This document shows positions 8,114 to 47,071 of a stretch of DNA of 47,071 nt, one piece after another. The stretch lies in NCBI GenBank assembly GCA_021158625.1, contig JAGGUG010000126.1, positions 1-47,071 of the forward strand. Direction: 5' to 3'. Both the position numbers and the translations under genes were made by a program. Position 1 is the stretch's first letter. Every line of letters begins with the position of its first letter. The stretch comes from Candidatus Omnitrophota bacterium. Its GTDB lineage: Bacteria; Omnitrophota; 4484-213. The notes below the pieces were generated by a model. It was not told the DNA's origin, ran no database searches, and saw only the letters and a program-made list of their open reading frames with translations.

Positions 8114-8134
8114 AAGTTCTCCTTTTTTAAAAAT

Positions 8135-8167
8135 GATTACAGCGATTAAATGACGATTACGGCGATT
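8135..8167 (-). repeat. Family D: two 13-mers with a 20-nt period
   Basis: The plus strand reads GATTACAGCGATT-N7-GATTACGGCGATT, upstream of aroF. Confidence 0.7.
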
Positions 8168-8188
8168 GACAATTTCAAGTTTTTAAAA

Positions 8189-14740: not shown

Positions 14741-14766
14741 GCCTGTTAAAACTCCTAACAGGGCTT
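14741..14766. repeat. Family A-like mini hairpin
   Basis: GCCTGTTAAAACTCCTAACAGGGC, lying just upstream of the glyA SD. Confidence 0.5.
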
Positions 14767-14786
14767 ATCAGTTTGCTCTTGCCTTT

Positions 14787-14821
14787 ACCTTGTTAGAAAG
14801 TCCCGCCCTTTCTAACGGGGT
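14787..14821. repeat. Family A short hairpin
   Basis: ACCTTGTTAGAAAG-tcccgcc-CTTTCTAACGGGGT. The last 9 codons and the TAA stop of dnaE are read from it. Confidence 0.7.
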
Positions 14822-17800
14822 TTACTTCCACCGTTACTCTTTCTTTTCCTATTAACTGCTCGAGTTGAAGAAGAAAACTTTCAGTGCACTTAGCGGTTAA
14901 GGAAGAGCGAACAGTATGCTTTCCTCGGGGGGAGGAGAAGATTAAATAAAGGGGAACATCCCCGGGGTGAGCAGAAACAAGCCTTTTTATCTCGCGAAGA
15001 AGATTTTCATCGCTGTCTGCTTCTAAATTCAGAGAAATAGAAGCAGTGTATTTCTGAGAGATTTGCTCTATTGGAATTAATTTCTCAGCAATTATCTTGC
15101 GTTCATTATTTCTTAAACTAATCCTTCCTTCGACGAAGATTGGAGCATCTATTTTAACATAATTGCTTACTTTATTAAAGACCTTTGGAAAAAGGATAAT
15201 CTCAATCGCCCCATTAGAAATCTCTAAATTAAAAAAAGCCATCTTCTCCCCGCGTTTGGTAACAATTTGTTTAATCTTAGTAATAACTCCCCCGACTAAC
15301 ACCTCTTCGTTTTCGCTGTAGTTATTTAATTCAGTAAAGGAAACGGAATATCTCTTCAGCACCTGCTCATACTCTGCTAAGGGATGACCGCTGAAATAAA
15401 AGCCCAGAAGCTCTTTTTCAAAGGCCAATAACTGATTGCGCGGCCATTCTTTTATTGTTATCTTTTTCTTTTCTTTTCGAGGTTCAAAGTAAGAGAGATT
15501 ATCAAGAAGGGATAATTGCCCCCGACTTTTATCTCTTTGGAGCCGATTTGCCCTCTGGAGGCTACCTTCTAAATCCACTATTAACTGAGCTCGTGGCAAA
15601 TTGAAACAATCAAATGCTCCGCATTTTATCAAACTCTCAATTACCTTTTTATTTACGAGTCTCAGATCTACTCGCTGACAAAAGTCTTCTAAAGAAGAAA
15701 ATTTCTTTTTTGTCCTCGCTTTAATAATAGAATCGATTGCTCCCCTTCCTACATTCTTCACTGCTAACAAACCAAATCTGATGCTATCTTTCTCAACAGT
15801 GAATTCAGCAAAAGATTGTTGAACATCGGGAGGTAAGATTCTTATACCCATCTTCCTGCATTCTTCTACATAATCAGCAATCTTGTCCGTATTATCCTCT
15901 TCACTGGTTAATAAAGCAGCCATAAACTGGAGAGGATAATTTGCCTTTAAATAAGCTGTCCGGTAAGAAATAAGGGCATAGGCGGCGCTATGGCTTTTAT
16001 TAAAACCATAGCCGGAAAAATATTCGATAAGATTAAATACTTTTTCCGCTACTCTTCTTCGTATCCCATTTTTTAGGCATCCTTCAACAAAAGATTCTTT
16101 TTGTTGCTCGATGACTTCGGGAATCTTTTTGCTTATTGCCCGACGCAGTAAATCTGCTTGAGTTAAACTAAACCCGGCCAGAATATGAGCAATTTGCATT
16201 ATTTGTTCCTGGTAGAGGATAATTCCATAGGTCTCTTTTAAGATTGGTTCCAACTTAGGATGGTCGTATTTAATTAATTTAGGATTGTGTTTTCTCTGAA
16301 CGAAATCATTAATCATTCCACTCCCTAAAGGACCTGGGCGATGCAAAGCGAGAATAGCTATAATATCCTCAAAATTCTGGGGTTCAATCCTCTTCAATAA
16401 ATCCTGCATTCCTCCACTTTCTAATTGAAACACCCCTATCGATTTCCCCTTGCAAAGCAGATGATAAGTCTTTTTATCGTCAAGAGGAATACTCTCAACA
16501 CTGATTTCTTTTTCGGAAAACCTCCTTATGTTTTCTATTGTTTTACTAATTACCGTTAAAGTACGCAGTCCTAAAAAGTCCATCTTTAAGAGACCAATCT
16601 TTTCCAGAGAAAACATAGAATACTGAGTAGCAATCTTCCCATCAGGGCTTTTAAACAAAGGCACAATGTCGCTCAGGGGCTGCTTGGAAATTACAACTCC
16701 GGCTGCATGGGTAGAGGCGTGCCGGGTTAATCCCTCCAGGCTCTTAGAGATATCCAACAATCGTTTTATCTGCTCGTCCTGCTCGTAAAGCTCCTTTAGG
16801 CGTGGCTCCTGATAAAGTGCTTCTTGAATGGTAATATTGAGCGTTAAAGGAACTAGCTTAGCAATCCTATCTACTTCTGAATAAGGCATCCCCATTACCC
16901 TGCCGACATCTCTGATTACTCCATGCGCGGCCATTGTACCGAAAGTAATTATTTGAGAAACATTTTCTTTGCTATATTTTTGAGTGACATAGTCAATCAC
17001 CTCATCCCTGCGCTGATAACAGAAATCAATATCAATATCGGGCATCGTTATCCGCTCATAGTTCAAAAACCTTTCAAATAAAAGATTATATTTCAGAGGA
17101 TTGATATCGGTTATTCCTAAGACATAAGCGACTAAACTCCCGGCCACAGAACCTCTACCGGGCCCAACGGCAATATTATTCTTCTTAGCAAAGTTAATAA
17201 AATCCTGCACAATAAGGAAGTAAGATGCATAACCAGACTCTTCAATTATTTTTAACTCCTGGTTCATTCTCTGAATAACCTCTTCATTTACCCTGTTAAA
17301 TAATTCGCTTGGGCGAACAGTGCCTTTGGCGGATTTAATAGGGTTTATCGCATTAAATTGCGCCTTTGCCGCCCCCCCGATGGAGGTGTCGGGGGATTCG
17401 GGCTGAACCTCTTTAAACCTTTCTTTCAACCTCTGCTGACAGAGTTCTTTAAGGTATTCTTTATCTGTTAGACCCTCGGGGGGAGAAAAAACAGGCATAT
17501 ACTTCTTACTAAAATCGAGCTCGAGATTGCATTTATTAACGACCTTTAGCGTATTGGTCAAAGCAGAGGGAATTTCTGAAAATAACTCCTTCATCTCTTC
17601 TTCACTCTTGAGATAAAATTCATTGGTAGAGAATCTCATTCTTTTAGGGTCATCTAAGGTAGTTTGCGTTTGAAGACAGAGAAGGATTTCATGGCTGTAG
17701 CTATCAGATTTATGTAAATAATGCACATCATTTGTAGCTACTAATTCTATATTCATCTCCTTTGCTATCTTAATCAACTCTCTATTTATCTTTTTTTGTT

Positions 17801-18386
17801 CAGGGATTAATTGGTCCTGAAGTTCTAAATAAAAATTATCTTTTCCAAATATATCCTGAAAGTCAATAATTGCTTTTTTGGCTTTATCGATCTGGTCATT
17901 AATAATATAATTGGGAATCTCTCCATGGAGACATCCACTGAGCCCAATAAGTCCCTCTGAATACTGAGATAAAATTTCTTTGTCTATTCTTGGTTTATAA
18001 TAGAAACCTTCTAAATAAGCCGCTGTAGCGAGTTTAACCAAATTTTTATATCCTTTTAGGTCTTTTACTAACAGAGTGAGATGTTTTCTTCCTCTCTTTT
18101 CCACTTCTGGATCTCGGTTGAATCTGCTTTCCGGAGCAAGATAAGCCTCATAGCCAATTATTGGCTTTATCCCCTGTTTCATTGCTTCCTGATAAAACTC
18201 AATTGCCCCAAACATATTTCCGTGGTCAGTAATGGCGATAGCCGGAAATTTTAATTCTATGCTTCTCTTGATTAAGTCAGGGAGTTTACAGGCGCCATCG
18301 AGAAGACTGTATTGGCTATGAACATGAAGGTGAGCGAAATTTGCGTGAGTCACGTTTTGGTAGGGAGGTGTTGGTTTGGTTACCAA
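14793..18386 (-). CDS. dnaE: DNA polymerase III alpha subunit
   Basis: 1197 aa. PHP FAHLHVHSQYSLLDG, GPGRGSVAGSLVAYVLGIT and PDIDIDF are present. The track start at 18386 is TTG, and a GVG-type alternative (GTG at 18353, giving MTHANFAHL) matches the usual N-terminal length. It contains an in-frame repeat insertion and ends inside a repeat hairpin. Confidence 0.93.
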   Translation of the reverse strand: MVTKPTPPYQNVTHANFAHLHVHSQYSLLDGACKLPDLIKRSIELKFPAIAITDHGNMFGAIEFYQEAMKQGIKPIIGYEAYLAPESRFNRDPEVEKRGRKHLTLLVKDLKGYKNLVKLATAAYLEGFYYKPRIDKEILSQYSEGLIGLSGCLHGEIPNYIINDQIDKAKKAIIDFQDIFGKDNFYLELQDQLIPEQKKINRELIKIAKEMNIELVATNDVHYLHKSDSYSHEILLCLQTQTTLDDPKRMRFSTNEFYLKSEEEMKELFSEIPSALTNTLKVVNKCNLELDFSKKYMPVFSPPEGLTDKEYLKELCQQRLKERFKEVQPESPDTSIGGAAKAQFNAINPIKSAKGTVRPSELFNRVNEEVIQRMNQELKIIEESGYASYFLIVQDFINFAKKNNIAVGPGRGSVAGSLVAYVLGITDINPLKYNLLFERFLNYERITMPDIDIDFCYQRRDEVIDYVTQKYSKENVSQIITFGTMAAHGVIRDVGRVMGMPYSEVDRIAKLVPLTLNITIQEALYQEPRLKELYEQDEQIKRLLDISKSLEGLTRHASTHAAGVVISKQPLSDIVPLFKSPDGKIATQYSMFSLEKIGLLKMDFLGLRTLTVISKTIENIRRFSEKEISVESIPLDDKKTYHLLCKGKSIGVFQLESGGMQDLLKRIEPQNFEDIIAILALHRPGPLGSGMINDFVQRKHNPKLIKYDHPKLEPILKETYGIILYQEQIMQIAHILAGFSLTQADLLRRAISKKIPEVIEQQKESFVEGCLKNGIRRRVAEKVFNLIEYFSGYGFNKSHSAAYALISYRTAYLKANYPLQFMAALLTSEEDNTDKIADYVEECRKMGIRILPPDVQQSFAEFTVEKDSIRFGLLAVKNVGRGAIDSIIKARTKKKFSSLEDFCQRVDLRLVNKKVIESLIKCGAFDCFNLPRAQLIVDLEGSLQRANRLQRDKSRGQLSLLDNLSYFEPRKEKKKITIKEWPRNQLLAFEKELLGFYFSGHPLAEYEQVLKRYSVSFTELNNYSENEEVLVGGVITKIKQIVTKRGEKMAFFNLEISNGAIEIILFPKVFNKVSNYVKIDAPIFVEGRISLRNNERKIIAEKLIPIEQISQKYTASISLNLEADSDENLLREIKRLVSAHPGDVPLYLIFSSPRGKHTVRSSLTAKCTESFLLQLEQLIGKERVTVEVNPVRKGGTF
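17289..17343. repeat. Family A element inside the dnaE CDS (in frame)
   Basis: ACCCTGTTAAAT ... ATTTAATAGGGT, encoding NPIKSAKGTVRPSELFNRV. Confidence 0.75.
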
Positions 18387-24266: not shown

Positions 24267-24372
24267 CAGGCTACAAGTTTCAGGCTACATCTGCCCGCCA
24301 TCTCGCAGGTGAAGGGGCTTCGGGCTTTTTTGTTTTTTAGCCTGCAACTTGCGGCTTGTAGCTTGCAGCTTG
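24267..24372. repeat. Family C low-complexity hairpin
   Basis: caggctacaagtttcaggctaca ... agcctgcaacttgcggcttgtagcttgcagcttg. It spans the leuA 3' end to the aroE start. Confidence 0.7.
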
Positions 24373-25853
24373 TTTACCGCCTCCAGATATGCCTTTGCGC
24401 TTGCTTCAATAATATCGGTGCTTGCCCCGCGGGCGGTAATTATCTCATCCTTAAATCGAACCTTAATGCTAACCTCTCCGAGGGCATCCTTCCCCGAAGT
24501 AATTGCCTGCAAAGAATAATCCAGGAGTTTCCCCTTTAACCCCGTAATTCTTTCAATTGTTTTATAACAAGCATCAATAGGGCCATCGCCACAGGCAGAG
24601 TCTTCTAATATTTCCTCACCCTTTTTCAGTCTTATCGTCGCTGTAGGCACAGTTTTATTCCCGCTACTGATATGGATGTATTCTAATTGCCAGACCTGGG
24701 GAATCCTCTTTTTGACTTCATCTAAAATTATCTCTAAATCCTCATCGAAAACCTCTTTCTTTTTATCAGCAATTTGCTTAAATTGAATAAAGAATTTGGC
24801 AAATTCCTTTTTTGTCAGATGATAACCCATCCTTTTTAGATGTTCCTCTAATGCGTGACTACCTGAATGCTTACCCAAGACCAATCGACTTTCTTTTACC
24901 CCTACATCTTTGGGGTTAATTATTTCATAAGTTGTTCTCTTCTTCAGAATTCCATCCTGATGGATTCCGGCTTCGTGGGCAAAGGCATTGCTTCCGACAA
25001 TAGCCTTATTGGGTTGAACTGGAATGCCTGTAAGATGGCTGACCAAATGGCTAACCTTAAACAGCTCCTCGGTTTTTATATTCGTCTCCCTTCGGAAGAT
25101 CTCCGGATGCAGTTTTATATTCATCACCACTTCTTCCAACGAGGCATTGCCAGCGCGTTCGCCAATGCCGTTGACCGTGCACTCAACCTGGTTAGCCCCC
25201 TCTTCCACGGCAGCTAAGGAGTTAGCCACAGCCAGTCCTAAATCGTTATGGCAATGCACACTCAAGTTAACATCCTTAAAAGAAATTTGTTGTCTCAGGT
25301 CTCTGATTAGTTTAGTAAATTGGGATGGGAAAATGCAGCCTACCGTGTCTGGGATATTGATGGTAGTCGCTCCGGCCGCAATTGCCGCCTGAACTACCTC
25401 CACCAAAAAATTAAAATCGGTGCGCGTAGCGTCCTCGGGAGAAAACTCAATGTCGTCGATAAAGCGCCTCGCATATCTTATACTCTCCACAGTCAACCTC
25501 AGAATCTCCTCCTTTGCCTTTTTTAATTTGTATTTTAGATGAATCTCAGAGGTAGCGCAAAAGATATGAAGGCGCGGTTTATTTGCCTTATCCAAGGCTT
25601 TTAGACAACAATCAATATCCTTCGTGAGGGTGCGCGCTAATCCGGCAATTATCGGCTTCTTTACCTTTCTGCAGATCTCTCTGATTGCCTCTATCTCCCC
25701 CGGTGAAGAAGCCGGATAACCAGCCTCAATTATATCCACATTAAGACGAGCAAGCTGTTCGGCAATGCTCAATTTCTGCTCGGGAGTCAAACTTGCTCCT
25801 GGTGACTGCTCGCCATCTCTAAGAGTTGTATCAAATATCAGTATTTTGTCCAT
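24285..25853 (-). CDS. leuA: 2-isopropylmalate synthase (or the closely related citramalate synthase)
   Basis: 522 aa. LRDGEQSPG, HCHNDLGLAVANSLAAVEEGA and a C-terminal LeuA dimerisation/regulatory domain are present. The last ~26 codons are read from a family C repeat. Confidence 0.88.
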   Translation of the reverse strand: MDKILIFDTTLRDGEQSPGASLTPEQKLSIAEQLARLNVDIIEAGYPASSPGEIEAIREICRKVKKPIIAGLARTLTKDIDCCLKALDKANKPRLHIFCATSEIHLKYKLKKAKEEILRLTVESIRYARRFIDDIEFSPEDATRTDFNFLVEVVQAAIAAGATTINIPDTVGCIFPSQFTKLIRDLRQQISFKDVNLSVHCHNDLGLAVANSLAAVEEGANQVECTVNGIGERAGNASLEEVVMNIKLHPEIFRRETNIKTEELFKVSHLVSHLTGIPVQPNKAIVGSNAFAHEAGIHQDGILKKRTTYEIINPKDVGVKESRLVLGKHSGSHALEEHLKRMGYHLTKKEFAKFFIQFKQIADKKKEVFDEDLEIILDEVKKRIPQVWQLEYIHISSGNKTVPTATIRLKKGEEILEDSACGDGPIDACYKTIERITGLKGKLLDYSLQAITSGKDALGEVSIKVRFKDEIITARGASTDIIEASAKAYLEAVNKLQATSRKLQAKKQKSPKPLHLRDGGQM

Positions 25854-28116: not shown

Positions 28117-28118
28117 TC

Positions 28119-28151
28119 AATCGCTGTAATCGAATTTTAATCGCTGTAATC
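28119..28151 (+). repeat. Family D: two 13-mers with a 20-nt period (opposite orientation)
   Basis: AATCGCTGTAATC-N7-AATCGCTGTAATC, lying between priA and fmt. Confidence 0.7.
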
Positions 28152-28175
28152 ACGGGTATCACAAAAGTGATGCCC

Positions 28176-29800: not shown

Positions 29801-29868
29801 GCCTGCCGGCTACAAGCTACAGGCTTCAGGTTTTTTAAGCGCGGGCTTGAGGCTTGTTGCTTGCAACC
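29801..29868. repeat. Family C low-complexity hairpin
   Basis: caggcttcagg (29820-29830) pairs with cttgaggcttg (29846-29856) through 8 Watson-Crick pairs and 3 G:T pairs on the plus strand. Confidence 0.7.
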
Positions 29869-30575
29869 AAAGAAAGTTCCTTCTTTATCTTCTTCATATC
29901 CTCCCAAACTGGAATCTTCCCTTGAGGGTTGCGCAGGAGATAGGCGGGATGAAATGTAGGAATCAGTTTTACCCTGTTAAATAATTTCGTTGAAGGCGAA
30001 ATTCCGCCGCCTAAGGCGAGGGAATTAACAGGGTGAATCCCTTCATAATCATAAAATTTTCCTCTTAATTGTGAGATGGGAGAAACCACACCAAGCAGGG
30101 TTTGAGCGGCAAATTTCCCCAATGCACAAATTATCTGCGGACGGATTATCCTTATTTGCTCTTTTAAATAAGGAAGGCAATTTTCAATCTCCTGAGGCAG
30201 AGGATTGCGGTTTCCCGGCGGTCGGCACTTTAGGATATTGGTAATATAGACATCTTCTCTCTTTAGACCTATGGACTGGATGATTCGGGTAAGGAGTTGT
30301 CCGGCTTTACCCACAAATGGTTTTCCTTGCCTATCTTCCTCCTCTCCGGGCGCCTCTCCGACAAATAATAGAGAGGCCTCGTTATTTCCCTCGCCAAATA
30401 CATAATGTGTTTTAGTTCTGGCAAGTGGGCACTTTGTACATTGGTGTACTCTTTGAGAAAGAAGCTCGAGCTCTTGAGAAGGAGAAATAGAAGGAGAAAA
30501 GAACTCCTCTATGCCGGCGAGCCTCTCTCCCTCTAAAAAGGTTTTGAGAGAGTCAATTATCTCTTTGTCTTTCAT
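29835..30575 (-). CDS. Uracil-DNA glycosylase, family 4, carrying an in-frame repeat insertion
   Basis: 246 aa. CTKCPL, GEAPGEEED, FVGKAGQLL and PTFHPAYLLRNP are present. The C-terminal tail (SNKPQARA) is read from a family C repeat. Confidence 0.88.
   Translation of the reverse strand: MKDKEIIDSLKTFLEGERLAGIEEFFSPSISPSQELELLSQRVHQCTKCPLARTKTHYVFGEGNNEASLLFVGEAPGEEEDRQGKPFVGKAGQLLTRIIQSIGLKREDVYITNILKCRPPGNRNPLPQEIENCLPYLKEQIRIIRPQIICALGKFAAQTLLGVVSPISQLRGKFYDYEGIHPVNSLALGGGISPSTKLFNRVKLIPTFHPAYLLRNPQGKIPVWEDMKKIKKELSLVASNKPQARA
29971..30034. repeat. Family A element inside the UDG CDS (in frame)
   Basis: ACCCTGTTAA ... TTAACAGGGT, encoding HPVNSLALGGGISPSTKLFNRV. Confidence 0.8.
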
Positions 30576-31128
30576 TATTCTTATGCTTTAAGATAATCCC
30601 ACTTGCTTCCCATAAATCCTGAGCAAAATAATCCGGCTGGATATCCCATTTTTTAGCATCTTCTAACTTTGTCCTTCCCGAACCTACCAAAATAGTCTTG
30701 CAACCTATTCTTTTGCCTGCTTCTACATCTATAGAACCATCACCGACAAAATAGGTGCTTTTAAAATCAACTTCTTTCCCTTGAGTGGCTTTCAAAAACA
30801 AACCAATCTTGGGTTTGCGACAGTCACAGCCATCTTCTTCGCGATGCGGGCAATAATAGACCTCCATCCTTCCCCCTTCTCTTTTTACCTCTTCAATCAT
30901 TCGTCGGGTAATCTCGTTTAGGGACTCCTGACTATAAATTCCCTTAGCTATTCCCGATTGATTAGAGATAACCTTAATTTCGTAGCCCTCTTCAGTCAAT
31001 CTGCGGATCGCTTTTAAAGCATTGGGCAGAAAATGAAATTCCTCCCATCGAGTAACAAATTTTTTCTCGCCGGGATATCTATTAATCACTCCATCGCGGT
31101 CTAAAAAGACTACTTTTTTGTTCTTCAT
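30553..31128 (-). CDS. gmhB: D,D-heptose 1,7-bisphosphate phosphatase (HAD-IIIA)
   Basis: The start was moved to the ATG at 31128 (MKNKKVVFLDRDGVIN). The zinc motif CPHREEDGCDCRKP is present. The track N-terminal extension overlaps tRNA-Arg. Confidence 0.85.
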   Translation of the reverse strand: MKNKKVVFLDRDGVINRYPGEKKFVTRWEEFHFLPNALKAIRRLTEEGYEIKVISNQSGIAKGIYSQESLNEITRRMIEEVKREGGRMEVYYCPHREEDGCDCRKPKIGLFLKATQGKEVDFKSTYFVGDGSIDVEAGKRIGCKTILVGSGRTKLEDAKKWDIQPDYFAQDLWEASGIILKHKNNERQRDN

Positions 31129-31257: not shown

Positions 31258-31262
31258 AGATA

Positions 31263-31392
31263 AGCTTCAAGCTGCAGGCTTTCAGGTCGCAGGCTACAGG
31301 TTTTAAGTTTTCTGTTTTTGACCTGCAGCTTGGAGCTTGAGACTTGAGGCTTATTAGCTTGCAGCTTGCGGTTTGTAGCCTGTAACCTGTAG
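31263..31392. repeat. Family C long hairpin
   Basis: aagcttcaagctgcaggctttcaggtcgcaggctacagg ... cctgcagcttggagcttgagacttgaggctt ... It lies between a promoter-like site and tRNA-Arg. Confidence 0.7.
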
Positions 31393-31511: not shown

Positions 31512-31597
31512 CCCCGTTAGATAACTTTATTGAGAATAACATTACTCCAGCAAGGTGTCAATGTATCTATTTTAGAATAGAAGTTGTCTAACAGGGG
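31512..31597. repeat. Family A element
   Basis: CCCCGTTAG-N68-CTAACAGGGG, ending 5 nt from the LigD-PE stop. Confidence 0.7.
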
Positions 31598-34623: not shown

Positions 34624-34726
34624 TTCCTTCCTCGCCGAAGGCGAGAGCCGACGAGTGCGCGAGCGAAGCGAGCAAGCGAGGAGGATAGCCCCGACGGAAG
34701 CGTCGGGGCGCTGTTCCATCTTCCTT
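34624..34726. repeat. GC-rich 103-nt direct repeat, copy 1
   Basis: It is identical by eye to 34808-34910 (offset 184 nt). It is made of GAAG-loop hairpins: CTCGCCGAAGGCGAG and CCCCGACGGAAGCGTCGGGG. Confidence 0.85.
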
Positions 34727-34807
34727 ACTCGCGAAGCGAGCCCTGAACCGTTCTGGTGCAGGGCGAGAGCCGAAGCCCCGAAACTTCGGGACGCCTTTTG
34801 TTTTTTC

Positions 34808-34910
34808 TTCCTTCCTCGCCGAAGGCGAGAGCCGACGAGTGCGCGAGCGAAGCGAGCAAGCGAGGAGGATAGCCCCGACGGAAGCGTCGGGGCGCTGTTC
34901 CATCTTCCTT
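34808..34910. repeat. GC-rich 103-nt direct repeat, copy 2
   Basis: See copy 1. The plus-strand track ORFs at 34655 and 34839 share the same first 24 aa. Confidence 0.85.
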
Positions 34911-35020: not shown

Positions 35021-35049
35021 ACTTTACTACACAATACCAACTTTGTCAA
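35021..35049 (-). promoter_or_regulatory. Sigma70-like promoter upstream of the GC-rich leader and ACT gene
   Basis: Minus strand TTGACA-17 nt-TAAAGT. Confidence 0.45.
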
Positions 35050-35089
35050 CCCTGTTAAATTCGTGTAGCGACTATTTAGTAGGATTGAC
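35045..35089. repeat. Family A element (right arm degenerate)
   Basis: GTCAACCCTGTTAAAT ... TTTAGTAGGATTGAC. Confidence 0.5.
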
Positions 35090-35908: not shown

Positions 35909-35982
35909 GGCCGGCTAAACCCCGTTAGGAACGTTGCTAAATAATTTCATTTTGGAAGGATTTCTAACGGGGTAAACCGGCC
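35909..35982. repeat. Family A element with extended arms
   Basis: GGCCGGCTAAACCCCGTTAG ... CTAACGGGGTAAACCGGCC, 16 nt downstream of the cspA stop. Confidence 0.8.
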
Positions 35983-36291: not shown

Positions 36292-36347
36292 CCCTGTTAA
36301 ATAGCCTGGGGCAATTCGGCCATAGGTGAGTTATTAACAAGGTTGAC
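36287..36347. repeat. Family A element
   Basis: GTCAACCCTGTTAAAT ... ATTAACAAGGTTGAC. The left end supplies the cspA -35 box. Confidence 0.7.
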
Positions 36348-39970: not shown

Positions 39971-40466
39971 GGCAATTAGAAATGGGAAACGGAAATTTAA
40001 TGCTTATTATCGTTTCCACACCTCTGACTTTGCCTTCCCAATAAAGTTCTTTTTCTCTTTTTTTAAAATGGTCGTCTAAAAAATCTAAACCAAGTGGTCT
40101 TAAAAACCAATCAAAATCATACCAATAACCTTCCTTTACCCCTTTTACATCACATAAAAGAAGGGTTGATTTTTTGGGTTCATCAAATTCTATCTTAGAA
40201 TCAATAATGTTTCTATGGTACCTCTGGATATTTCTTTTAAAAGAATCAATTTCTTTAGTTATAAATTCTTCTTTAGAGTTTAAAATTTCATAAAAATCCT
40301 CTTCATCCCAAAAAGCTTCCTTCTGGTAATGAGCAACCCCTCCTTCTACTTTTATTTTTATATCTTCTTTTATCGCATTAATATCTATTTGTTCTGATAT
40401 GCCAATAGACCTTCCCGGCAAGAAAACTCCCAAGCTAACCAAACCGATTATTACTAATCTCCTCAT
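39948..40466 (-). CDS. Hypothetical secreted protein
   Basis: The start was moved to the ATG at 40466 (MRRLVIIGLVSLGVFLPG, signal-peptide-like), which is preceded by AGGAGG. I recognise no family. Confidence 0.55.
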   Translation of the reverse strand: MRRLVIIGLVSLGVFLPGRSIGISEQIDINAIKEDIKIKVEGGVAHYQKEAFWDEEDFYEILNSKEEFITKEIDSFKRNIQRYHRNIIDSKIEFDEPKKSTLLLCDVKGVKEGYWYDFDWFLRPLGLDFLDDHFKKREKELYWEGKVRGVETIISIKFPFPISNCHEHIWKR

Positions 40467-40500
40467 CGCAATACCTCCTGAAACCAATGTTCAATAAACT

Positions 40501-40684
40501 AAACCCCGTTAGAAAGGGCGGGGCTTTAATCCCGCCCTTTCTTAATAAAACATTTTTTCCCCGCCCACCCCGTTAGAGACCTTGCTAAAGATGGTTCAAT
40601 GTCATAAGACGAAGGTTTATCTCAAATAGCAAGAGTAGTCTCTAACGGGGCCCACGGAGGGGGGCTTTCTAAGGGGGTAAACCA
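40501..40684. repeat. Cluster of nested or tandem family A elements
   Basis: There are three components. (1) AAACCCCGTTAGAAAGGGCGGG-gctttaa-CCCGCCCTTTCTTAA. (2) ACCCCGTTAGAGAC-N57-GTCTCTAACGGGG, a perfect 13-bp inverted repeat at 40567-40650. (3) A solo arm CTTTCTAAGGGGGTAAACC. Confidence 0.75.
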
Positions 40685-40689
40685 TCTTT

Positions 40690-41457
40690 TTACGGCTTAC
40701 AAACCTTGCAAGGAATATATCCCTTATCTATTGCTTCCTGACGATTATTAAACCAAATTTGATTCTCTGGTTTTATTTTCTTAGCCCACATACACTCGGG
40801 TTTGTGAAATTTTTTAGACTTTTTATGTCCAACATATTTGCCTTTAAATGAAAATTTAGCAACAGGCAAAGTGACCCCTGTAGCAACTGGCAGCTTTTCT
40901 AATCTATTTTTATCTTTATACTCACAAGTATCAATATAAGTGCCGTCCCAGAATTTATTAAATTGCTCTCTGTATCTTCTGGCGAGTTCTCTGGACTTTA
41001 TTATCAGCACATTCTCGTCATTCCTTAAATCTGCACTGACAGTCCAGTTATATGAACCGGTGATAGTAATGTAGTCGTCAATAATACAAAATTTGTTATG
41101 CATAATACCGGAACCGCTTATTAATCTTATATTAACGCCCTTATTCTCTAAAAATTTACTCTTTGTGTATTCATAATGGGGTTGCTCCTCATCCAAACAG
41201 ACCTTAACATCTACGCCCCTATCCTTTGCTCTCACTAATGCCTGGGCTATAGGCCTTGAAGTAAAATAATACATTGCTACATAGACACAACTCCTGGCAT
41301 TATCAATTGCCGAAACAATTTCCTGAGCACAATTATCCTGCGGTGAGAATAAAACTTTTATTTGAGAGGTAGATTCAGAAAAGTTCTGAGCAGTAATTAA
41401 AGGAGAAAATGCAAAGATTGCGATGGATAATAAAACAAAAAATAAAAATTTTCTCAT
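40690..41457 (-). CDS. Secreted PLD-superfamily (Nuc-like HKD) nuclease with a C-terminal Cys/His metal-binding module
   Basis: 255 aa. It has a signal peptide and the HKD motif MHNKFCIIDDYITITGSYNWT. The C-terminus FHKPECMWAKKI...GYIPCKVCKP resembles the Ada-type zinc domain. Confidence 0.78.
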   Translation of the reverse strand: MRKFLFFVLLSIAIFAFSPLITAQNFSESTSQIKVLFSPQDNCAQEIVSAIDNARSCVYVAMYYFTSRPIAQALVRAKDRGVDVKVCLDEEQPHYEYTKSKFLENKGVNIRLISGSGIMHNKFCIIDDYITITGSYNWTVSADLRNDENVLIIKSRELARRYREQFNKFWDGTYIDTCEYKDKNRLEKLPVATGVTLPVAKFSFKGKYVGHKKSKKFHKPECMWAKKIKPENQIWFNNRQEAIDKGYIPCKVCKP

Positions 41458-41528
41458 ATTTCTTGCAGTTAATTATAATTAAACATCACCCGATTCTAAT
41501 GCACCTGCCTGCCGGTAGGCAGTTGTTT

Positions 41529-43531: not shown

Positions 43532-43568
43532 ACCCCATTAGATAGCGGCTTCGCCTATCTAACGGGGT
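43532..43568. repeat. Family A short hairpin
   Basis: ACCCCATTAGATAG-cggcttcgc-CTATCTAACGGGGT. It contains the pcm stop codon (..LPR-TAG). Confidence 0.75.
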
Positions 43569-44284
43569 AAATCTCTCTGCATAGGTACAAATCTCACCGG
43601 GATAATGCTTTCAATCTCGATCTTGCCGTCTTTTTTCTTGATGAGTTTTAATTCTTGATAGCGCTCGCCTAACGGAATAACCATCTTCCCACCCTCCTTT
43701 AATTGCTCAATGAGAGCCGGGGGTATCTGCTCGGGGGCGCAGGTAACAATAATCGCATCAAAGGGGGCATACTCTTCCCAACCAAGATAGCCATCGCCGC
43801 ATTTAACCTTGATATTTTCATAACCTAAACTTCTGAGCAACTTCTCGGCTTTTTGGGCTAAGCTGGGAAGGATTTCAATTGTGTAAACCTCGGCGGCTAA
43901 TTCGGCTAAGATTGCTGCCTGATAACCCGAGCCAGTGCCAATCTCCAGAACCCTTTCCTTGCCTGAAAGAGAGAGCAACTCGCTCATCAGGGCAACAATA
44001 TAGGGCTGCGAGATTGTTTGACCTTCGCCGATGGGTAAAGGGCTATCTATATAAGCCAGATGGCGATATTCCTGAGGCACAAACAGATGTCTTTTTATCT
44101 TACGCATCGCATTCAATACGGCTTTGTCCTTAATCCCTCTTGCCTCAATCTGAGAACTCACCATCTGCTCCCGCAAGTTCTTAAAATCTATCCTTCTTGA
44201 TGCCTTCAATGGCAAATCTTGCCCAAAAACAACCCTGGTGATTGCCAGGAATAAAATTAGGCCTACCAACCAAGTTTTATTCAT
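43559..44284 (-). CDS. pcm: Protein-L-isoaspartate O-methyltransferase with a signal/anchor sequence
   Basis: 241 aa with TISQPYIVA and the SAM motif [15 protein letters not shown]. The stop codon lies inside a family A hairpin. Confidence 0.9.
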
Positions 44285-46216: not shown

Positions 46217-46221
46217 TTCTT

Positions 46222-46253
46222 AACCTGAAGCTTGCAGCCTGTAACCTGAAGCT
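46222..46253. repeat. Family C single-arm copy
   Basis: aacctgaagcttgcagcctgtaacctgaagct, lying between murB and the patatin gene. Confidence 0.5.
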
Positions 46254-47071
46254 CATCCCCAAATCTCCACCTCCAGTTTTAAATGAGTATTAAACCTCTT
46301 TTGAACCTCTTTGCGCATTATTCTAATGAGGGCTAAGACATCCTCTGCTTTAGCCTTTTGGTTATGATTGATAATAAAATTGCTATGCCGAGAAGAAATC
46401 TCTGCTCCGCCTACTCTTCTTCCTTTTAAACCGCATTGCTCAATCAGCCAACCTGCTCCTTTTTTCCCTTCTGGATTCTTAAAGATGCAGCCTGCCGAAG
46501 AGAGGGTCAACTCCTGCGTCCTCTGGCGATAAGCAATAAAATCACCCATCTTCTTGGCAATTGCTTCTTTATCGGCTCTTTGCAGACTGAATTTTGCTTC
46601 TATGATAATATGGGGAAAATCCCTTTCTTTTTTTTCTCCATCAAGCATCTTCACATAATCAAGCACTTCCTTAATCCTTCTTTTGAAGGGATAAGATACG
46701 CTCAAATTTGTCTTTATTGCCCCGCCCACGGTAGCCGGAACCCCGACAACAAACTCCAATCCGCTCAATCCATTATCCCTGGCTACCTTTAGGGCTTCTG
46801 TCAGTTCTGCTCCGCCTCCACAACGCAAGCTTTGTCCTTCTCTTTTAACATAAGTGAACCCAGGGGAATTTAGGCGAATCACTATCCCTTTTACGCCGTT
46901 GTCCCTGACTAAAAGATTACTTCCCCTGCCGATGACAAAAAGAGGGATTTCTTCATCAACAGAAAATTTAACGAGTTTAGTTAAAGAAGGAATATCTGTC
47001 GGTTCAACCCAGGCTTCTGCCGGGCCACCCACCCCTAAAGTAGTATGCTTAGCAAGCGGCTCATCAAATAG
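46253..47071 (-). CDS. murB: UDP-N-acetylenolpyruvoylglucosamine reductase; the 5' end runs off the window
   Basis: The reading frame is open to the window edge (LFDEPLAKHTTLGVGGPAE...). SAGCIFKNP and GGAEISSRHSNFIINH are present. Confidence 0.9.
   Translation of the reverse strand, partial: LFDEPLAKHTTLGVGGPAEAWVEPTDIPSLTKLVKFSVDEEIPLFVIGRGSNLLVRDNGVKGIVIRLNSPGFTYVKREGQSLRCGGGAELTEALKVARDNGLSGLEFVVGVPATVGGAIKTNLSVSYPFKRRIKEVLDYVKMLDGEKKERDFPHIIIEAKFSLQRADKEAIAKKMGDFIAYRQRTQELTLSSAGCIFKNPEGKKGAGWLIEQCGLKGRRVGGAEISSRHSNFIINHNQKAKAEDVLALIRIMRKEVQKRFNTHLKLEVEIWG

Follow-up and report, generated by a model that had tools for sequence, protein, structure and literature searches.

A contig of 47,071 nt from a Candidatus Omnitrophota bacterium (JAGGUG010000126.1, assembly GCA_021158625.1; analysed over its whole length and referred to as the window) carries a gene for a family-4 uracil-DNA glycosylase (UDG) that contains 66 additional nucleotides with palindromic ends. 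We are confident that this segment belongs to a non-autonomous, hairpin-forming repeat family with multiple copies and that it was inserted in frame into the UDG gene. The single UDG insertion is a modest event, but it is a clear member of an apparently undescribed hairpin element that occurs across phyla and is conserved in structure.

The UDG open reading frame (ORF; 29835..30575, minus strand) is intact and codes for 246 aa. Its translation holds the blocks CTKCPL, GEAPGEEED, FVGKAG and PTFHPAYLLRNP, as given in a preliminary description made from the sequence alone. The protein matches the UDGs from Thermus (UDGA, PDB 1ui0, E=8e-53) and Thermotoga (1l9g, E=8e-48), Pfam PF03167 is assigned to an identical protein, and the nearest database relatives are annotated as Candidatus Omnitrophica/Omnitrophota. 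Sequence and fold are those of family 4 (UDGA), with four Fe-S cysteines (C46, C49, C117, C133), motif A GE[AG]PG (GEAPG, residues 73-77) and motif B HP[AS]xxLR (H209-PAYLLRN), all of them invariant or nearly so in an alignment of 113 sequences.

The extra segment (29970..30035, minus strand) comprises 22 codons (residues 181-202, HPVNSLALGGGISPSTKLFNRV) and is placed between ...RGKFYDYEGI and KLIPTFHP. The protein reads FYDYEGI-HPVNSLALGGGISPSTK-LFNRV-KLIPTF across it, with the junctions FYDYEGI-HPVN and FNRV-KLIPTF. On the DNA level, ACCCTGTTAA is found at 29971-29980 (plus strand) and its exact reverse complement TTAACAGGGT at 30025-30034, where the inverted repeats had been placed before; the 66 nt represent this 64-nt inverted-repeat segment plus one base at either side. 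The 64-nt segment had been taken as the unit. While it encodes the 22 residues almost exactly, the unit turned out to be a 62-nt core plus 4 nt, the conserved end extending to TTYA-CCCTGTTAAAT.

The insert is a lineage-specific indel, as had been proposed. Alignments to Thermus UDGA (1ui0) and Thermotoga TM0511 (1l9g/1vk2) extend over residues 36-180 and 201-237 and pass over the insert, and none of the 112 homologues in the 113-sequence alignment has residues in the 22 insert columns. Thirteen contigs, which come from several independent assemblies, code for the identical UDG protein, and the six of them that were fetched do not differ in the DNA of the insert, so that it is not an assembly artefact.

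An AlphaFold2 model of the UDG, computed with the 113-sequence alignment, has a mean predicted local distance difference test (pLDDT) score of 87, with 94-98 in the core, and superposes on 1ui1 with a TM-score of 0.92 and a root-mean-square deviation of 1.2 Å (Foldseek). Values below 50 are confined to residues 181-198 and to the C-terminal tail (244-246). The former stretch is flanked by a short strand (175-176) and by strand 203-207; a pLDDT below 50 between two strands of a confident core argues for a loop at a beta-hairpin turn, and the structure prediction, proposed earlier as a check for a surface loop, came out in favour. The insert is located in the turn between strands KFYDY and KLIPTF, which lead to the catalytic HPAYLLRN, and the topology of the fold suggests that it lies at the strand end opposite to the HPAYLLRN active-site end. 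We infer that the 22 residues of the insert are translated and form a disordered surface loop, and that the predicted enzyme stays functional in the lineage of the window. The dN/dS of the window UDG versus its empty-site orthologue is 0.10.

This orthologue (P0002, 79% identity), the closest one without insert, is encoded in a matching gene order in CSMAG_2090, a metagenome-assembled genome (MAG) of Omnitrophota. The empty site there reads ...GAGGGGA|TAAAACTAATT... (GGGA|TAAAACT), and the window has ...GAAGGGATTCACCCTGTTAA...TTAACAGGGTAAAACTGATT... at this position. As judged from the aligned DNA, the UDG event is a clean 66-nt insertion with a precise boundary. The site is empty in L007 and L008 and occupied in the window and in L009, a contig of Candidatus Omnitrophica bacterium 4484_213, which is syntenic, shows ~94-97% nucleotide identity to the window and shares the insert (ICPVNSLALGGGISPSAKLFNR). 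In CSMAG_2090 the UDG copy is missing, but its dnaE has a copy at the site that is occupied in the window; the dnaE insertion is therefore older than that into UDG. On these comparisons, the CSMAG_2090 lineage had already separated when the UDG insertion occurred, and 4484_213 separated later.

The UDG gene of 4484_213 has been altered at both ends. Its 3′ end, including catalytic motif B, is swapped for ~200 nt of unrelated repeat-rich sequence directly after ...TTTAACAGG (L009 10879-11114 versus window 29811-29973), and a 271-nt deletion joins UDG to the upstream gmhB-like gene (L009 ~10357 versus window 30495-30766). If the assembly is right, UDG is dead in 4484_213 and one of the breakpoints coincides with the end of the element; otherwise, this MAG from 2017 is mis-assembled.

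The window contains many related sequences. The motif ACCCTGTTAA is found 16 times with at most one mismatch, versus 2.66 +/- 1.70 expected from 100 dinucleotide shuffles (maximum 7; none of the 100 reaches 16). Pattern, hidden Markov model and covariance-model searches located at least 10 family members, and these fold far better than shuffled sequences (z -3.4 to -7.6). The UDG copy with its conserved ends (29968..30037, plus strand) is canonical and consists of TTTA, the 62-nt core (29972-30033) and TGAA. Its model orientation (O1) is on the plus strand and thus antisense to the gene, and its fold has -25.5 kcal/mol (z=-4.7). Inner hairpin 1 (29983..30003, plus strand) pairs AATTTCG with CGAAATT around a 7-nt loop, and the homologous helix covaries across the family. 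Inner hairpin 2 (30004..30024, plus strand) is GC-rich and is 6 nt longer than in L115 and L120; these are the closest canonical copies and differ from the UDG copy mainly by this expansion.

The presence of the same termini inside dnaE and in intergenic copies, noted in the preliminary description, was confirmed. The dnaE gene (14793..18386, minus strand) codes for the 1197-aa Pol III alpha subunit (PDB 2hpi, E=6e-302) and shows the motif termini at 17290-17344. They belong to an intact canonical copy (17287..17347, core 17291-17343, plus strand), which is in frame and encodes NPIKSAKGTVRPSELFNRV; its orientation and reading frame agree with those of the UDG copy. It is adjoined by a degenerate copy of 60 nt (17348..17407, minus strand), which encodes QPESPDTSIGGAAKAQFNAI. 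The two tandem copies make up a 39-aa insertion that is absent from 16 homologues. At the orthologous site, dnaE of CSMAG_2090 has a single 71-nt copy (KERFKEV[HPVKSLPAGRQAPGGIRRGELFNRV]KEEVIQRM).

In two cases a family hairpin forms the end of a gene. The end of dnaE, 9 codons and the stop codon (NPVRKGGTF plus stop; 14793-14820), comes from a short hairpin of the variant class (14784..14824, plus strand, variant copy at 14788-14820; CCTTGTTAGAAAG...CTTTCTAACGGGG). A hairpin of the variant class (43532..43568, plus strand) contributes the final 3 codons and the stop (TAG) to the PCMT gene (ORF 43559..44284, minus strand; LPR plus stop, with TAG inside CCCCGTTAG; 43559-43568). Annotated C-termini in such genomes may therefore be element-derived.

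Among the remaining members, an intergenic copy at 36292..36342 (minus strand) is canonical and has an orthologue in 4484_213 (L009 4704-4754). The termini of the variant class have the consensus CCCYRTTAR...YTAAYRGGG. Intergenic variant copies are found at 35920..35972 (termini CCCCGTTAG...CTAACGGGG), at 35049..35085 (short) and at 31512..31596 (85 nt, same termini). A weak mini-hairpin of only 23 nt with family termini is located at 14741..14763. At 40504..40650, a hairpin with one family terminus (40504-40545) and an 83-nt variant copy (40568-40650) adjoin a strain-specific PLD-nuclease gene. The other genes of the window are all housekeeping genes on the minus strand, and no transposase is encoded in the window.

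The repeat family is not special to this lineage but spans several phyla, which corrects the preliminary description. When one genome of every GTDB species was scanned for exact matches to the pattern CCCTGTTAAATAR-N20-50-TTAAYARGG, at least 116 loci were found, among which tens of chance matches are estimated (~17 for uniform composition, up to ~60 for AT-rich DNA). The matches listed include many Patescibacteria (among them a closed Nealsonbacteria genome, CP179888.1), Saccharibacteria, WOR-3, Desulfobacterales, Omnitrophota (4484_213, CSMAG_2090 and CSMAG_2044), Bacteroidota, Cloacimonadota and others. A 949-kb contig of Doudnabacteria also has the element. The flanks of 112 copies follow the consensus T-T-Y-A (74%, 77%, 87% and 79% at positions -4 to -1); these flanks, together with the fixed layout that is common to most of the matches, are not expected by chance.

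In most copies the layout is outer stem, AA, hairpin 1, TT, hairpin 2, outer stem. The conserved outer stem, TTYA-CCCTGTTAAAT...ATTTAACAGGG-TRAA, encloses the two short hairpins, which gives the element a three-way-junction form. For 32 copies, paired cells amount to 96.2% versus 84.3% in shuffles and the covariation score is 0.341 versus 0.120, with none of 500 shuffles reaching either value. Nine of the 11 inner-helix pairs show changes at both sides, and pairing falls to 33-47% when the 3′ partner is slid out of register. With a covariance model (R2) derived from 28 copies, all of them from outside Omnitrophota, the best match in the window is the UDG insert (51.8 bits, E=1.1e-10), followed by the dnaE copy (E=3.5e-8).

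A search of Rfam 15 yielded only tRNA and rRNA at the gathering score and no family that matches the element; the best sub-threshold match (mir-1991, 17-26 bits versus a gathering score of 66) is due to chance. In the full-text literature searched by sequence, peptide and topic, no description of the family was found, only coincidental primer matches and general reviews. The family, its three-way-junction form and its cross-phylum spread thus appear to be undescribed.

Subfamilies can be distinguished. In WOR-3 / Stahlbacteria the element has 62 nt and the same outer stem, its interior lacks the two hairpins, and there are many copies per genome (L018, L020, L021, L025, L043, L047, L054, L055, L064, L068, L084, L091, L092, L108, L112, L114, L125). 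The flanks of this subfamily are fixed (TGTGGYTC...TGAATCTG), and L091 has three copies within 1.7 kb. In Desulfobacterales, a 48-nt core (flanks CCTG...TAAA) is central in a longer conserved repeat of 120-280 nt (L011, L014, L023, L026, L062, L067, L079, L097, L101, L116). L014 is assigned to Armatimonadota and may be mis-binned. A further subfamily is found in several classes of the candidate phyla radiation and has longer common flanks (AAAACCTTTA-[element]-TGCTSAAWTTT). Canonical copies of Patescibacteria adjoin the 5′ and 3′ ends of 23S rRNA in the spacers of rRNA operons (L052 1190-1261, L081 6461-6530). Five identical matches on viral contigs do not have the inner hairpins and are probably unrelated.

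About 90% of the copies in other genomes, among the matches listed, are intergenic. Copies within long ORFs were found in a LeuRS-like gene (L012), in GatA (L013), in DnaE (L098) and in a 664-aa membrane protein (L119). The contig L012 is an inverted duplication, probably an assembly artefact, with the same 1257-aa ORF and the element on both strands. GatA was rejected as a clean indel case, its copy being located in a linker that is variable among homologues. Nearly all coding copies, in the window as well as in other genomes, have one orientation and frame (xPVK[SC]...[KE]LFNRVx), and the reading enters two weaker cases (L087, L122) in the TLLN frame. The cores of the coding copies have lengths of 53, 56, 62 and 71 nt, each of which is a multiple of three when 4 nt are added. 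The reading frame is thus kept because core plus 4 nt is a multiple of three and because one frame is stop-free in that orientation. In the opposite orientation, two of the three frames meet TAA at once (CCC-TGT-TAA; CCT-GTT-AAA-TAA). As that orientation carries stops and so destroys genes, the one-frame rule is what purifying selection would leave, and the restriction to one orientation and one frame is best read as survivorship.

A profile of the encoded peptide was searched exhaustively against 1.84 billion representative proteins and matched 79 of them at E<=1e-3. Spurious short ORFs that overlie intergenic copies account for many of these, and a word-indexed protein search with the peptide had returned nothing but such ORFs. 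Real proteins with the peptide are UvrC (3 copies), LeuRS, KsgA, LigT (2 copies), Wzy-type ligases, methyltransferases and PGI. Going by these matches, the element appears to have repeatedly become part of essential proteins. It also affects annotation in MAGs, where it yields spurious short ORFs (gene callers make hypothetical proteins of 28-81 aa from intergenic copies, P0241-P0260), fused genes (in P0322, read-through of the element fuses a trigger-factor N domain to a YqeY C-terminus) and wrong C-termini.

The behaviour of the element had been likened to that of Rickettsia palindromic elements (RPEs). RPE-1 to RPE-10 (Ogata et al. 2000, 2002; summarised in PMC10969869) are palindromic and multi-copy, and occur intergenically as well as in frame in housekeeping genes. 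RPEs and the family described here have in common that they are palindromic, multi-copy and without coding capacity of their own, that no transposase is known, and that they occur both between genes and in frame in unrelated housekeeping genes (UDG and dnaE in the window; LeuRS, UvrC, KsgA and LigT elsewhere), adding a peptide at positions compatible with the fold. However, our family is shorter (~50-70 nt versus ~100-150 bp), has a defined three-way junction with a conserved outer stem and covarying inner hairpins, is found in several phyla instead of one genus, and has a lower share of coding copies (~10% of the sampled copies versus nearly half for the gene-inserting RPE families). By size and host (50-70 nt; Omnitrophota, Patescibacteria and others) it is set apart and is not an RPE. 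The likeness in behaviour stands, and in-frame insertion is recurrent; in 4484_213, with its truncated UDG, persistence is not harmless.

The junctions of the element were analysed with respect to its mobilization. For 112 copies, direct repeats in the flanks are not enriched over shuffled pairs (k=4, 4 versus 1.8 expected; k=5, 0), and heterotypic ends (TTTA with TGAA, or TTCA with TAAA) outnumber homotypic ones (25 versus 9). Three occupied/empty comparisons are available, and no target duplication is found in any of them. At the UDG site, TTTA (plus strand) was already there, and the core and TGAA are new. In the Desulfobacterales comparison, TAAT/TAAA pre-exists at one side and CCTG arrives with the element. 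In the comparison of WOR-3 paralogues, which is imprecise, TTCA arrives with the element and the target side is CAGG, not TAAA. Hence in two of the three comparisons TAAA/TAAT pre-exists at one side and the 4 nt at the other side are new. A 4-bp target duplication, which the TTTA/TTTA and TAAA/TAAA flanks had suggested, was dropped because these flanks belong to the inverted repeat (T-T-Y-A). Tandem copies, as in dnaE of the window and in L017, are expected if the target is retained after insertion.

According to the mechanism that we propose, an enzyme acting in trans, with HUH/Y1 as the most plausible type, would move the element while it is single-stranded and folded. Insertion would occur immediately 3′ of TTTA without target duplication, and a different tetranucleotide (TGAA or CAGG) would come with the element as its 3′ end. 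Selection for folding rather than for sequence would maintain the inner hairpins. We consider HUH-type single-strand mobilization in trans to be a possibility, held with reservation. The family resembles IS200/IS605-derived and REP/REPIN-RAYT elements, which move by HUH/Y1 single-strand transposition ("peel and paste"), in being hairpin-rich, in the lack of a target duplication and in tandem copies at one site. Insertion beside a fixed tetranucleotide, with a different one at the element's own end, would be a further likeness, with which the few and imprecise junctions are consistent. Long terminal inverted repeats are absent from those elements, whose hairpins have a conserved sequence, and REP sequences have a 5′ GTAG; our family, in contrast, has an 11-15-nt terminal inverted repeat, sequence-variable inner hairpins and no GTAG.

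The broader proposal is that horizontal spread has carried one sequence-conserved hairpin element into four phyla or more (Patescibacteria, Omnitrophota, WOR-3, Desulfobacterota), and that it is moved single-stranded by a widely shared enzyme, inserts adjacent to TTTA without duplication, and has repeatedly donated ~20-residue peptides, C-termini and stops to essential proteins (DnaE, UDG, LeuRS, UvrC, KsgA). We put this forward tentatively, as an account that may be correct in this combination but is somewhat less likely than not.

Several observations weigh against a mobile element of this kind. The mobilizing enzyme was not found: besides the lack of a transposase in the window, no recurrent neighbour protein family was detected at the at least 116 loci (all-against-all clustering of 1581 neighbouring ORFs), and neither the window nor these neighbourhoods yielded a Y1/RAYT gene. 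The strong terminal inverted repeat is atypical of IS200/IS605-type elements, and the inner hairpins are too variable in sequence for the protein-recognised hairpins of such elements. The reading of the junctions comes from three comparisons between sequences that are only 75-90% identical. As to recent mobility, no same-species empty UDG allele was found in metagenomes. That helix 1 is invariant among the copies from the various phyla is in part a consequence of searching with an exact pattern. Finally, the UDG of 4484_213 breaks off immediately behind the element and has a fusion at its 5′ end, which implies that an insert-bearing gene can decay and that persistence is not harmless there; dN/dS between the UDGs of window and 4484_213 is 0.35-0.44, derived from only 13-17 substitutions, which are too few to interpret.

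Candidates for an autonomous parent were rejected. Unpaired termini 0.8-1.3 kb apart (L111, L099) enclose genes for ATP synthase and an MBL-fold protein, not transposases. The ~1-kb window-specific segment between family hairpins codes for a PLD-type nuclease with an Ada Zn domain and not for a transposase. The nuclease encoded by this ORF (40690..41457, minus strand, within 40466-41503) is secreted and has the Ada Zn-binding domain at its C-terminus; the segment is missing from 4484_213, which has 28 nt there, and is bordered on both sides by CCCCGTTAG-type hairpins.

The element might instead be a classical MITE (miniature inverted-repeat transposable element), a deletion derivative of an insertion sequence (IS) with a DDE transposase, which acts on double-stranded terminal inverted repeats and whose short target-site duplications have since decayed. 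Bacterial MITEs with intragenic copies are known, e.g. ERIC, Correia/CREE, QMITE1 of Coxiella and the MITEs of Anabaena (PMC10969869). They share with our family terminal inverted repeats, small size, dispersal, occasional in-frame fusions and altered 3′ ends of genes. The conserved terminal inverted repeats of 11-15 bp and the many dispersed and tandem copies fit this explanation, and so do identical 4-nt flanks in the window (TTTA/TTTA at 17291 and 14788, TAAA/TAAA at 35920, CCCA/CCCA at 40568). However, direct flank repeats are not more frequent than in the shuffled pairs, and in two of the three occupied/empty comparisons the 4 nt of one side pre-exist while those of the other side differ. 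A cognate IS was not found: there is no parent IS or transposase beside unpaired termini, and none with the same ends (TTYACCCTGTTAAAT) occurs in the window or in the at least 116 loci of 8 kb. In addition, the interior is kept as structure and not as sequence, and covarying inner hairpins would have no role in a MITE. We consider this explanation unlikely.

Also weighed was a primary function as structured RNA or protein-binding hairpin, e.g. in processing, termination or stability, with the coding copies being accidents. The strong covariation in two helices would be accounted for, as would the hairpins located exactly at gene 3′ ends in the window, the Patescibacteria copies that adjoin the ends of 23S rRNA, and an excess of intergenic copies between co-directional genes that have the model orientation with the genes (19 versus 8). 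On the other hand, no Rfam family matches, and copies occur in both orientations, within unrelated essential genes and beside unrelated genes. Exceptions from pairing are G-U and A-C in similar numbers (~14 versus 11), so that neither strand is privileged, and the most conserved part is a perfect duplex and not loops or junctions. The mild orientation bias together with the balanced exceptions gives no clear sign of a function on the RNA level, and we regard such a primary function as improbable.

It is highly improbable that the segment is removed after transcription or translation in the manner of an intron or intein, leaving a mature UDG without insert. There is nothing direct in favour of this beyond a stable stem (-25.5 kcal/mol) that brings the two junctions together, while the 22 aa have no intein motifs, ribozyme or intron families do not match, and coding copies would not need the stop-free, one-orientation form with a multiple of three nucleotides that nearly all of them have. 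An ordinary lineage-specific expansion of a loop, or an assembly chimera, with a chance likeness to the repeat is effectively refuted: although the site is a surface turn tolerant of indels, the insert was recognised by a covariance model that had never seen Omnitrophota, shares termini and two-hairpin layout with L115 and L120, has a precise boundary versus L007, and is identical on six fetched contigs from independent assemblies.

A relation to the attC sites of integrons was considered. Both are imperfect palindromes (55-140 nt) with a variable centre and GTTRRRY/RYYYAAC-like boxes (GTTAAAT...ATTTAAC). However, the order of the boxes is inverted (GTTRRRY 5′ and RYYYAAC 3′, versus 5′-RYYYAAC...GTTRRRY-3′ in attC), the stem runs outward with CCCT/AGGG, and copies of either orientation are scattered among core genes and do not form cassette arrays; the assignment was rejected. 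Resemblance to the XerD arm of dif (TGTTAAAT) and to boxA of rrn (TTTAACA) extends over 7-8 nt.

In-frame "selfish" palindromes in housekeeping genes have so far been regarded as a speciality of Rickettsia, and the same behaviour is seen here in uncultivated lineages. If the spread across phyla is true, this would be a second and much broader case of "protein-coding palindromes". The conservation of an 11-15-nt stem across phyla implies a conserved partner protein. Occurrence of the same element in co-occurring lineages from groundwater and sediment may provide a marker for DNA exchange between phyla. The copies in dnaE and UDG represent dated natural experiments, the UDG insertion being the younger one, and in one descendant the gene appears to have been lost at the element's boundary.

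The genome is unusually rich in short repeats of other kinds. Heptamer-periodic repeats (CAGGCTWCAAGCTTCAGGCTACA; unit ~CTTGNAG) occur in both orientations in the spacers 2410-2486, 24267-24374, 29803-29834, 31259-31391 and 46217-46257. The one at 29803-29834 is located in the UDG-priA spacer just 3′ of the UDG stop codon, and heptamer-like sequence continues into the codons of the UDG tail (...VASNKPQARA). A perfect direct repeat of 103 nt (34624-34726 and 34808-34910) is separated by 184 nt, and around 34624-34910 the window is ~420 nt longer than 4484_213. Another small repeat family (TGATTACAGCGATTAAATGACGATTACGGCGATTGA) has two inverted copies 20 kb apart (8134-8169 and 28117-28152) and is also found within a 348-nt insertion specific to 4484_213 (L009 5447-5795). 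A further insertion specific to 4484_213 (234 nt, L009 4823-5057) contains yet another repeat.

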